Assembly: GCA_046482545.1 (NCBI GenBank)
Contig: JAWOEX010000015.1
Coordinates: 1-10,676, forward strand
Reading direction: 5' to 3'
Source of the DNA: Candidatus Thorarchaeota archaeon
Lineage (GTDB): Archaea > Asgardarchaeota > Thorarchaeia > Thorarchaeales > Thorarchaeaceae
DNA length: 10,676 bases
The position numbers and the translations under genes are program-made. This document shows, in pieces, positions 3,616 to 10,676 of this stretch. The number at the start of each line of letters is the position of its first letter. Positions within the stretch are counted from its first letter, which is position 1. The notes under the pieces are model-generated. The model was given only the letters and a program-made list of their open reading frames with translations, was not told the origin of the DNA and ran no database searches.

Positions 3616-3648
3616 AGCACAATGATTGAGGTTGGATATGATAACCGT

Positions 3649-3734
3649 ACCTAGAGTTGCCAAGATTTGAGCGGAACCTCAGAAAAGCAGTACCTCCATC
3701 CTCAGCATTTCAGTTTGTTTTGTTTTTGCAGTGT
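3649..3734 (+). repeat. Repeat copy 3 (5'-truncated rRNA 3' trailer)
   Basis: ACCTAGAGTTGCCAAGATTTGAGCGGAACCTCA, core at 3690-3708, T-rich tail ending TTTTGCAGTGT. Begins 33 nt after the stop at 3615. Confidence 0.93.
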
Positions 3735-4377: not shown

Positions 4378-4416
4378 CCTGTTCTTTTCTGGCTGTTATG
4401 CTCAGACTGCAGGAAG

Positions 4417-4517
4417 AGACCGAAGGTATAACTCGTGCTGCACCTAGAGTTGCCAAGATTTGAGCAGAACCTCATGAAACATGTACCTCCATCCTCAGCA
4501 TTTCTCATTCAGTTTTG
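4417..4517 (+). repeat. Repeat copy 4 (5'-truncated rRNA 3' trailer)
   Basis: AGACCGAAGGTATAACTCGTGCTGCACCTAGAGTTGCCAAGATTTGAGCAGAACCTCA, core at 4483-4501. Begins 39 nt after the stop at 4377. Confidence 0.93.
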
Positions 4518-4623
4518 ATGTCTTACAGTGTTGTTTTTGCAGAAAGAGTTGGTATTCCGATTCTCAGTTGTCCCACACAAAACAGATGATACCTTATTGC
4601 GAGCAATATCTAAACGCGAACAA

Positions 4624-4651
4624 ATCAAGAATAGGCAAATTTTACAAAAAT
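4624..4651 (+). repeat. 28-bp imperfect direct repeat, left copy (flanks the structured RNA)
   Basis: ATCAAGAATAGGCAAATTTTACAAAAAT versus ATCAAGAATAGACAAGTTCTACGAGAAT at 5190-5217. 23/28 identical, and all differences are transitions. Confidence 0.65.
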
Positions 4652-4731
4652 CCTAAAAAATCCGAGTGGAAGAGTGTAAAAGATCTGTAAGATTTCCTGT
4701 AAGTGCTACTCTAGACCCAGGGCGGTATGAC

Positions 4732-4738
4732 TTTATTA
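4732..4738 (+). promoter_or_regulatory. Putative TATA box for the structured RNA
   Basis: TTTATTA about 25-30 nt upstream of the start of the GC-rich structured segment. Confidence 0.45.
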
Positions 4739-4763
4739 GGTCCAGTACGAAATTTCGTTTCAG

Positions 4764-5171
4764 TAGGACTAGGCAAGTGGGCTAGTGCTCTGACACGACG
4801 CGCGCGGCTGAAAGCTGTGAGGTGGACTCGTTCCCCTAAGCAGAAGTCCCCACTCTCCCCCAACGGTTCTCCATCAGACCGGGGAGAGTCCGCGGCTGTT
4901 CACCTCGTCTGTAATGGGCCATCTCTGCGGCGGTGACAATGTTGAGGTGGGTGATCATGACCACGCCGTGGCAAGAACTGTGGAAGACCTCGCTGTCGCC
5001 GGGAGTGATGACCCAGGATGACAACAGGAGAAAGAAGCCAGGACCGCGGGAGGAATCCCATTCCTGTGAACGTGGACAAAGCCCCTGCTGACTCACGGGC
5101 CTACGGGTACCGTGGGGGCGGCGACGCTGGCAGGGGAAGGGTGGAACACAGAAGTTTCATGCAGTTCCTAG
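4764..5171 (+). ncRNA. Unidentified large structured ncRNA candidate (~410 nt)
   Basis: GC-rich with no credible ORF. Nested helices: 4819-4827/4898-4906, 4852-4860/4881-4889, 4931-4938/4994-5001, 4944-4948/4987-4991, 5024-5029/5062-5067, 5082-5089/5129-5136 and 5092-5098/5110-5116. Tetraloops c(UACG)g 5102-5105, GCGA 5121-5124 and GGAA 5052-5055. The G-U pairs and tetraloops work on the + strand. Boundaries approximate. Confidence 0.7.
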
Positions 5172-5189
5172 AACTGTAAGAAATGGGTT

Positions 5190-5217
5190 ATCAAGAATAG
5201 ACAAGTTCTACGAGAAT
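5190..5217 (+). repeat. 28-bp imperfect direct repeat, right copy
   Basis: 23/28 identity with 4624-4651. Confidence 0.65.
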
Positions 5218-7573: not shown

Positions 7574-7582
7574 GGCAAAAAT

Positions 7583-8568
7583 GGTTCTGTAGAATAATAC
7601 ACGAATTAAGAGGCGAACCGGTCGTGTCACATGATTCATGCACTACGATGTCTCATACAACGCGGCCAAAGCTCGCCGCTATCACTTTCTCCTTTATGAG
7701 CTTATGAGCCTTTGCAATACCATTCCCGATACGAGATCCCAGCATGGACGTCCTGTTGAGTTTCCCCTTCCCACACTCTTTGTCCTCCTCGGGCTCAAGT
7801 TTGACACTGGTCTTGGATATCGTGACTTCATTGCCACCCTCACCTTCAACACTGTCCTGCTCCAGCGACTTGGACTTGAGCGAGCCCCTCACTTCTCCCT
7901 CCTCCAGAAGGCAGTGAGGCGGTTGGACACCCAGCTTCTCCATCAGATGTACCAGCTCCTTGCCAACAAGCGTTCTCCTCCAAAGACGATTGCTGTGGAT
8001 TCTTCTGGGTTCTCTCACTCGTCCGGTGGCGAGTGGATGACCTTCCGGTTCAAGAGAACACGGAAACGCCGTTTCCATGCCCTTCACAACGCCGTTGACA
8101 CCGACACCCTGATGATCACCGCAGCTAGAGTGAGTGCACGACCAGGTGGTGATGCCAAACACCTGGCCTCTCTTGTGAGGAGGGGGGATTGCAGGAGACT
8201 TGAGACTGTCTACGGGGACAAGGCCTACATCTCACGACAGAACGTCCAGTTCATCCATGACCTTGGTGCATACCCAGCTATTGAACCAAAGAAGAGGTTG
8301 CGAGCTCGATCTCGAGGACATCGAGGATACAAGGAGTTGATCAGTGAATATCGCTCTGACCCCGATGAGTGGAAGCGGGTTCATGAGTATGGAATGAGGA
8401 GCCTAGCGGAGACTGTGTTCGGGATGATGAAGGTGAGGTTCACGGAGCGTCTGGGGTCACGAGGATTCAGAGAACAACGTCGCGAGTTGTTGATCAAGGT
8501 GGTCCTTCACAATATCGAGCGACTCAACTTCTTGGAGTGTGCCGGGAGGTGACTTTTTCTACAGAGCC
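7583..8568 (+). mobile_element. Complete IS5-family insertion sequence (IS903-like ends), 986 bp
   Basis: TIRs GGTTCTGTAGAATAA (7583-7597) and TTTTTCTACAGAGCC (8554-8568), 13/15 match. 9-bp target duplication GGCAAAAAT at 7574-7582 and 8569-8577. One transposase ORF fills the element. Confidence 0.93.
7638..8552 (+). CDS. IS5-family DDE transposase
   Basis: 304 aa. IAVDSSG (D1), YGDKAY (D2), and YGMRSLAETVFGMMK, which fits the Y-2-R-3-E-6-K motif. Confidence 0.95.
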   Translation: MHYDVSYNAAKARRYHFLLYELMSLCNTIPDTRSQHGRPVEFPLPTLFVLLGLKFDTGLGYRDFIATLTFNTVLLQRLGLERAPHFSLLQKAVRRLDTQLLHQMYQLLANKRSPPKTIAVDSSGFSHSSGGEWMTFRFKRTRKRRFHALHNAVDTDTLMITAARVSARPGGDAKHLASLVRRGDCRRLETVYGDKAYISRQNVQFIHDLGAYPAIEPKKRLRARSRGHRGYKELISEYRSDPDEWKRVHEYGMRSLAETVFGMMKVRFTERLGSRGFREQRRELLIKVVLHNIERLNFLECAGR

Positions 8569-8577
8569 GGCAAAAAT

Positions 8578-8708
8578 GGCGTTGTGTGAAAAGTCCTTGG
8601 CGATGAATGTGTGTGACCGGAAAAAAGGGAAATGATTTCAGAAACCAGGCATTTTGGAATTTGATTACTCCATTTCCTTACTTCTTCGTTGACTTTTCAC
8701 ACAGGGCC
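8578..8708. mobile_element. 131-bp MITE (non-autonomous IS5-type element)
   Basis: TIRs GGCGTTGTGTGAAAAGTC (8578-8595) and GACTTTTCACACAGGGCC (8691-8708), 16/18 match. Flanked by GGCAAAAAT at 8569-8577 and 8709-8717. Its right TIR matches the IS right end at 14/18. Confidence 0.88.
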
Positions 8709-8717
8709 GGCAAAAAT

Positions 8718-10235: not shown

Positions 10236-10290
10236 AGCACCGAGCTCCGGCGAGGTGTTCAGCTCACCGCTACTAATGTCCGAGGCGAGC
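10236..10290 (+). rRNA. 23S rRNA 3'-terminal fragment (helix 101 to 3' end; not a full gene)
   Basis: AGCACC-GA-GC-TCCG-GC-GA-GGTGTT forms the archaeal-type helix 101 with tandem GA pairs and a UNCG loop. It is followed by CAGCTCACCGCTACTAATGTCCGAGGC, which matches the conserved LSU 3' end as I recall it (E. coli GUUGAGCUAACCGGUACUAAUGAACCGUGAGGC). Upstream 23S sequence is absent. Mature 3' end approximate. Confidence 0.8.
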
Positions 10291-10375
10291 AGACCGAAAG
10301 TATGACTCGTGCTGCACCTAGAGTTGTCAAGATTTGAGACGGAACCTCAAGAAACAGTACCTCCATCCTCAGCAT
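10236..10375 (+). repeat. Repeat copy 5 (longest): 23S 3' end plus 3' trailer
   Basis: 10279-10375 aligns with 171-266. Core at 10357-10375, followed by a T-rich tract. Confidence 0.93.
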
Positions 10376-10676
10376 CTATTTTATTTTAGTAATGCGGTTT
10401 CAAAACAAGAAGAAATGATGGTCCGTTTTGTTGTTTTTCGCAGACGGCTTCATTTCACTTCCCTGGTTATGCCTGTTCATGAGTCGATTCTGAGAGCAAG
10501 TCTCAAATAGTGCCGCTCTTTCTCATGTCAGGATAGTAGGAACGGGAGTCAAATGTCAGGTTTCTTCCACTACAATAGGAAGATGCGGTTAGAGCGAGTG
10601 CTTTCGCTGGGTTGTGTTCTCCAGTTGTATTCATCTGAGTGGAGACTGACATCTGATGCCAATCACACAGAGGGCA

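Follow-up and report, generated by a model that had tools for sequence, protein, structure and literature searches.

A MITE-like mini-element of a Thorarchaeota aCas1–TnpB transposon carries a large structured RNA, probably a guide scaffold of the omegaRNA type

Introduction

The stretch of DNA analysed here, 10,676 nt of a contig of a Candidatus Thorarchaeota archaeon (the window), contains between the repeats of an array a GC-rich island (56–61% GC over 4700–5200 versus 35–43% in the flanks). A preliminary description had read this island as an unrecognised structured RNA carried inside the array and had offered four identities for it: a novel ncRNA class, a highly diverged RNase P- or SRP-like RNA, a mobile-element RNA, or a piece of a pre-rRNA leader or spacer. 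What is this RNA, what carries it, and what has it to do with the array? The feature is, with near certainty, a MITE-like non-autonomous derivative, formed by internal deletion, of a Thorarchaeota aCas1–TnpB transposon.

Results

The RNA belongs to a dispersed mini-element

Searching the organism's own genome with the feature returned 88 matches on both strands and many contigs, 35 of them near full length (each ~560 bp), so that the mini-element family alone amounts to a genome-shaping repeat. Within the family (Thorarchaeota), 25 of the 36 genomes searched contain matches, whereas 24 more distant ones gave none. The copies start ~100 nt upstream of the start first proposed, and in 35 of them homology drops abruptly after RGGTTA. 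The original extent of 4732–5176 was too small: the window copy is a 566-bp non-autonomous mobile element spanning 4625–5196, with TCAAGA duplicated on both sides, and its RNA covers about 4764–5191 (~430 nt) plus flank (Table 1). Mobile-element RNA was the right choice among the four identities offered. A pre-rRNA origin was rejected on the 88 dispersed matches, as against 16S rRNA matches on contigs C2 and C33 only. The 16S rRNA gene apparently contains two ~30-nt inserts in conserved regions (L049:800–830 and 1419–1447), possibly short archaeal introns.

Table 1. Features of the window copy of the mini-element and its RNA (window coordinates)
Feature	Position	Strand	Basis
Left hexamer TCAAGA (family consensus TCNNGA)	4625–4630	+	Hexamer comparison between copies; empty site
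Left end of element, TGTAA(G/A)A motifs repeated in both orientations	4631–4730	+	Similar left end on full elements
Archaeal TATA-like box, about 25 nt before RNA start	4732–4739	+	Recurs in copies
RNA domain 1, closed by 4766–4770/4845–4849	4766–4849	+	Alignment fold
Frameshifted tnpB 3′-end remnant (codons 468 onward), overprinted by RNA structure	4766–5068	+	81% identity to C28 tnpB tail and right end
Hairpin 4852–4889 and multi-helix domain 4890–4971	4852–4971	+	Covariation
Predicted kissing-loop pseudoknot, 4872–4876 with 5006–5010	4872–5010	+	Pair conservation
RNA domain 3, closed by 4978–4982/5147–5151, containing the three-way junction	4978–5151	+	
Bulged hairpin at the 3′ end, interpreted as a repeat fused to its anti-repeat	5154–5184	+	Hairpin in 29/29 mini copies
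Conserved end of scaffold and element, RGGTTA(T)	5185–5191	+	Homology loss after it
Right hexamer TCAAGA	5191–5196	+	Copy ends; hexamer comparison
Predicted guide, read from flank	5192–5211	+	TnpB precedent (PMC10097598); register of upstream unit

The left hexamer equals the right one in 19 of 24 copies; for the central NN of TCNNGA the two ends agree in 20 of 24, versus 5.2 by permutation. Duplication length has its mode at 6 bp among the copies; a longer target duplication (8–11 bp) fits single copies only. The central bases track element lineages, with TCAAGA at the left end in 6/6 copies of one clade, and target choice therefore seems to be matched to the element. For the C24 copy, two congeneric genomes hold the orthologous empty site with a single hexamer position, and two other sites lack about 560–580 bp; a search of 86 genomes gave no empty site for the copy in the window itself. 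The repeated motifs of the left end are likely transposase-binding sites, and in another genus the motif is TGTCAGA, changed at both ends together. Multiple copies, the lack of an intact ORF, ends common to a larger element and empty sites are all features of MITE- and PATE-like elements.

The window copy is an insertion between two array repeats. Contigs with array repeats hold this full copy and, on contig C32 only, small fragments; the link to the array is incidental and the mini-element is a passenger. The first view of a structured RNA inside the array holds for the GC-rich island and for most of its helices, not for membership in the array. The window contains a ~130-nt repeat at 180–300, 1302–1388, 3645–3733, 4411–4544 and 10288–10393 that separates unrelated genes like integron cassettes; it has 29 matches, clustered on contigs C13, C17, C18, C19, C32 and C45, and no tyrosine integrase to go with it was found in the genome. 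Further along (7574–8577) lies an IS5-family element (NF033579 above cut-off) with terminal inverted repeats and an apparent 9-bp target duplication, GGCAAAAAT. It stands in tandem with a ~130-bp element (8578–8717) that has related inverted repeats, is followed by the same 9-mer and is probably an IS5-type MITE.

Comparison of 25 copies with long ORFs showed that 21 interrupt none, two lie in sense and two in antisense, and a sense bias of insertion is unsupported in this set. These counts bear on a self-splicing intron-like RNA which, as in IStrons, would remove the element from host mRNA. The presence of a large, multi-domain, pseudoknotted RNA within a TnpB element would suit such a function, but the insertion counts speak against it and no group I or II Rfam model matches, making it very improbable. 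Assignment to the IStrons themselves was rejected, as no group I core was found and only two of the 25 copies lie in sense.

The parent element encodes a predicted Cas1-fold protein and TnpB

Four copies of the feature lie directly behind a TnpB zinc finger. Tracing from a left end closely similar to that of the mini-element gave two complete parent elements of ~8.3 kb (contigs C28 and C20), each with its own duplicated hexamer and each consisting of the left end, an ORF of 1400–1700 aa on the opposite strand, tnpB, and a right end as in the mini-element. The aCas1 gene and tnpB are arranged divergently in most loci of sufficient length, and Thorarchaeota predominate among the named relatives of the proteins of the element.

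Sequence searches of Pfam, NCBIfam and the PDB named no family for the giant protein, and Foldseek returned weak Cas1 rows only. The first 330 residues nevertheless gave a confident model (pLDDT 88.7), for which the top 12 matches in an exhaustive structural search were all Cas1 or casposase (Z 9.1–12.4, rmsd 3.5–4.3 Å over 150–192 residues; best match Z 12.4, rmsd 4.0, 180 aligned), with the next match at Z 6.8. According to the model, the partner protein of the parent element has a Cas1 fold. Past the Cas1 domain, the giant protein (L059:3647–8674) contains a conserved motif resembling PD-(D/E)xK nucleases, with D438 and K462 invariant, and >1000 residues without a family match.

The parent TnpB, encoded intact on C28 (542 aa), scores above the PF07282 cut-off and its fold search returned Cas12f and TnpB structures (E 1e-14 to 1e-10). 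It has a glycine in place of the usual RuvC-II glutamate; D241, E402 and D436 are invariant, with E402 as the alternative, a rearrangement predicted to be active in the main text of PMC10691335. At one locus (L054, C28:236400–237300) an Lrp-like helix-turn-helix start is fused in frame to the C-terminal half of TnpB.

Neither a Y1 nor a serine TnpA is present in the full elements. No tyrosine or serine recombinase and no resolvase was found in the 99% complete genome, and its one Y1 TnpA gene is broken and unlinked to the elements. As no Y1, serine or tyrosine enzyme is linked to the elements, and from the linkage of aCas1, its fold and the ends that mini-element and parent have in common, we infer that the aCas1 of full elements would move the mini-element in trans into TCNNGA sites.

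The RNA has a large, covarying fold

The + strand folds better than its shuffles (z −2.0), versus z −0.7 for the − strand. From 36 homologues (69% mean identity), RNAalifold gave 98 pairs, 62 of them with two-sided change, in 17 helical segments, in keeping with the at least seven nested helices seen at first. Taking the 99.9th percentile of all other column pairs as background, 24 of the 98 pairs covary above it where 0.1 would be expected; the related loci are not independent, and p-values overstate. The RNA is a real, large folded structure.

The closing helix of domain 1 is kept in 99% of cells and shows little covariation because it is nearly invariant; inside the domain, covariation is seen at 4781/4801 and 4786/4795. 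The multi-helix domain contains nine pairs that exceed the 99.9th percentile, and in it 4897/4964 shows a non-canonical U-C/C-U covariation. The predicted kissing loop is supported by five consecutive pairs kept in 89–100% of the 36 sequences, as compared with 11–47% at neighbouring positions, and by a C-G to U-A change in six sequences. Domain 3 has 15 strongly covarying pairs over eight helices. Its three-way junction (5082–5136), recognised in the preliminary description, is confirmed (z −3.6; three helices with 4, 4 and 1 strongly covarying pairs); the GCGA tetraloop reported on it recurs as a conserved GYGA at 5121–5124, and the UACG loop is not conserved. Two further elements needed redrawing. 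The suggested end-to-end pairing of 4764–4775 with 5160–5170 is peculiar to this copy (−8.0 kcal/mol, against a mean of −3.8 for the homologues), 4766–4770 pairing instead with 4845–4849 and 5154–5184 forming its own hairpin, and the GGAA-capped stem at 5048–5059 is replaced by a covarying helix, 5052–5056/5060–5064.

No relevant Rfam match was found in the window or in seven homologous loci, and the family is uncatalogued in Rfam; no tRNA was found in the window. Short motif echoes are all that speak for a diverged RNase P, SRP or pre-rRNA RNA. RF00373 (archaeal RNase P RNA, with its P4 pseudoknot) and RF01857 match neither the window nor any copy, whereas genuine RNase P and SRP RNAs are present on C34 (156.5 bits) and C28 (103.5 bits), respectively, and the echoed motifs pair with other partners in this RNA; such an origin was rejected.

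A predicted promoter precedes the RNA

The TATA-like box noticed earlier, TTTATTAG at 4732–4739, is the predicted promoter of the mini-element RNA. Most of the 29 aligned copies have a similar box about as far ahead of the RNA, and mini-elements of other genera also have TATA-like boxes there. Sigma-70 promoter scans are inapplicable to archaea. The RNA family is represented in 12 metatranscriptomes from three studies, the contigs establishing presence only, with DNA carry-over possible. In two runs, contig depth was 200–1500 over most of 4890–5170 and 0–17 over the left end, a contrast that hints weakly at a transcript, contigs giving no strand, level or ends.

The fold overprints the 3′ end of tnpB

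Sequence comparison identifies the GC island as a frameshifted tnpB tail plus right end, that is, the position of an omegaRNA. In the parent TnpB, the protein tail (471–542) is predicted to be disordered (pLDDT below 50). Among 35 intact homologues, fourfold-site identity rises from 0.34–0.39 before the RuvC-III motif to 0.64–0.77 after it and codon periodicity fades after the same motif; synonymous sites in the tail are over-conserved. Codon-type conservation without covariation had been named at the outset as a result that would speak against an RNA. The homologues are indeed coding, yet codon periodicity is lost and pairs covary exactly there, and the region is therefore dual-coding. Overlap with the tnpB 3′ end and right end and a conserved, covarying structure are both characteristic of TnpB omegaRNAs, and we consider it probable that the RNA is an omegaRNA-type guide scaffold used by the TnpB of the parent transposon. 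Against this reading, the RNA far exceeds the ISDra2 omegaRNA (247 nt; PMC10097598) in length, so that parts of it may do something else.

Of the pair changes seen in the mini copies, 301 preserve pairing and 146 disrupt it, and variation at paired sites is half that at unpaired sites (0.11 versus 0.20), while the frame of the tnpB tail is kept in only 7 of 29. Structure kept with the frame lost argues against the mini-element being a mere DNA parasite, its fold baggage from the parent right end that TnpB does not use at mini copies. So does the observation that mini-elements of several genera have different left ends and yet break at the same RNA start, with a TATA-like box ~25 nt before it, and shorter internal deletions exist but are few. 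MITEs, on the other hand, need only their ends, the donor sites are without TTAAT (see below), and the mini copies look mosaic for two tnpB tail types, so that conservation could stem from recombination with parents. On balance we regard the parasite explanation as unlikely.

A further alternative is that the RNA serves the aCas1 transposase instead of TnpB, as a cofactor or target-specifying RNA. This would account for an RNA in every mobile copy, for its unusual size and for the inherited hexamer core, whose lineage-following centre is unlike a random target duplication. The position of the RNA, its overlap with the disordered tnpB tail and its crRNA-like end nevertheless fit TnpB omegaRNAs, and identity of the left end to the right flank or target beyond the hexamer, as a circle-junction guide would produce, is not in excess (p 0.07–0.44). 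The aCas1 alternative is accordingly quite improbable, and RNA-guided target choice through a circle-junction guide found no support, the window's 17-of-20 match being an outlier. In the window, the right flank (5191–5217) resembles the element's own left end (23/28), and the predicted guide approximately matches left ends of its clade (14–15 of 16), which is not a family trait.

A putative crRNA-like unit lies upstream of tnpB in parent elements

Upstream of nearly every tnpB examined is a short conserved unit complementary to the RNA segment from 5154 onward plus GTTCACTC. Its duplex with the large RNA has a predicted energy of −21.4 kcal/mol for cognate, −19.7 for non-cognate and −8.6 for shuffled partners; the greater stability of cognate duplexes has a centred p of 7e-4 across 25 loci, among which kin are not independent, and two-sided changes are clear in L109, L076, L095 and L078. 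The unit ends GAAAC-AGGTCAG, with AGGTCAG in the same 7-nt position as RGGTTA(T) in the large RNA. In most loci the next 12–17 nt copy a site 64–65 nt upstream, which covers the TATA box and sits behind TTAAT (each letter in 25–28 of 31 loci). Spacer–promoter identity is 13.4 of 16 for cognate versus 9.8 for non-cognate pairs, the permutation maximum being 11.1.

We read the upstream unit as a crRNA-like RNA with its spacer aimed at its own promoter, like CreR, an autoregulatory crRNA-like RNA (10.1101/2024.10.29.618823). With short guides, TnpB binds without cutting (PMC13507860). The conserved TTAAT is a predicted TAM, and the short spacer would send TnpB to the copy behind TTAAT in the unit's own promoter, where the protein would repress by binding, without cleavage. 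As a prediction, such self-repression is well supported for the parent; it does not concern the window copy. The second TATA copy may act as a tnpB promoter too, but two independent promoters need not stay identical.

The right end of the element repeats the ending of the upstream unit in cis, so that the large RNA would form its last hairpin by itself and continue into a flank guide predicted to begin at 5192. The GTTCACTCA motif downstream of tnpB is present in parent loci, deleted in the window copy, and its segment is kept in only 5 of 29 mini copies; on this reading, the variable region before it is an anti-repeat, not a guide as proposed in PMC10691335. TTAAT is absent from the left (donor) flanks of insertion sites. 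This comparison, which takes both TAM and guide start as predicted here, gives no support to the role that TnpB usually has, cleavage of the empty donor site.

In several loci (L108, L107, L112, L149, L093, L082 and L084) the sequence at the guide position after the right-end repeat resembles pieces of tRNA. With three self-matches removed, 10 of 32 reach at least 14 of 17, versus 1/105 shuffles; some loci have two tRNA-like units in tandem, and a predicted tRNA lies within 600 nt in 10 of 40 loci.

Discussion

We propose that the mini-element keeps only the cis-acting parts of its parent, namely the left end, promoter, omegaRNA and right end. The TATA box would drive a ~430-nt scaffold that ends in a hairpin of anti-repeat and repeat joined together, with a guide from the flank behind it, and TnpB from full elements would load this RNA. 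In full elements, the same 3′ segment would also pair in trans with the small crRNA-like RNA encoded upstream of tnpB; most mini-elements, the window copy included, have lost the segment that trans pairing would need and kept the hairpin. Less probably, the aCas1–TnpB elements could be regarded as a CRISPR-like system within a transposon, combining a Cas1-fold integrase with a Cas12f-like nuclease, in which one large tracr-like RNA works with the repeat and guide fused to it or with crRNA-like units supplied separately. The mini-elements might then form a dispersed guide library laid down by Cas1-type insertion, and the tRNA-like sequences of other genera could act in homing, as guides of an RNA-directed transposition. 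That Cas1 occurs naturally together with a Cas12f-like nuclease, whose RNA is part-fused and part-split, bears on the origins of type V CRISPR.

The parent family is published: the main text of PMC10691335, citing Makarova et al. 2020, describes aCas1-associated TnpB elements of Asgard archaea (Cas1H-Asgard-1/-2) together with the GTTCACTCA motif. Gene context was the basis on which these transposons were proposed, and the proposal did not settle where the guide lies. The present elements share with them the Cas1-fold gene beside tnpB, the Asgard host, the flanking repeats and GTTCACTCA downstream of tnpB; the variable region that the published account treats as a possible guide behaves here as an anti-repeat. 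That main text is silent on an RNA structure, on mini-elements, on a TCNNGA target and on a small RNA upstream, and in the literature consulted we found no description of the ~430-nt RNA, the mini-elements or the dual-RNA circuit. Our analysis supplies the exact ends, the TCNNGA target, the covariation-supported scaffold, the guide register and the predicted TTAAT TAM.

Like the omegaRNA (reRNA) of ISDra2 TnpB from IS200/IS605 (PMC10097598), the RNA is pseudoknotted, overlaps a disordered tnpB tail and the right end, and is predicted to take its guide from the flank. It differs in length (~430 versus 247 nt), and its element has no Y1 transposase, a duplicated hexamer and, at donor sites, none of the predicted TAM. 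Membership in IS200/IS605 or IS607 was rejected, the parent having no Y1 or serine TnpA; insertion in IS200/IS605 is without target duplication, and here the hexamer is present twice. PATE-like omegaRNA elements (10.1101/2023.03.14.532601) are likewise protein-free, with both ends and an omegaRNA that needs proteins in trans, but here the parent is a transposon with a predicted Cas1 fold, not IS605, and the target is duplicated. Casposons resemble the parent in their Cas1-fold protein as likely transposase and in target duplication. The two complete 8.3-kb elements have no ORF or Pfam match for the family B DNA polymerase that casposons carry, and were not assigned to them; their Cas1 is part of a 1400–1900 aa fusion, their ends are only degenerate inverted repeats and their duplication is about 6 bp. 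The closest parallels to the circuit are CreR/tracr-L (10.1101/2024.10.29.618823), with its short crRNA-like unit upstream of the effector gene and partial promoter match, and the TranC split-RNA TnpBs (PMC13565253), with scaffold and repeat on separate RNAs. Unlike either, the system described here belongs to a transposon without a CRISPR array, and its predicted scaffold also ends in its own fused repeat.
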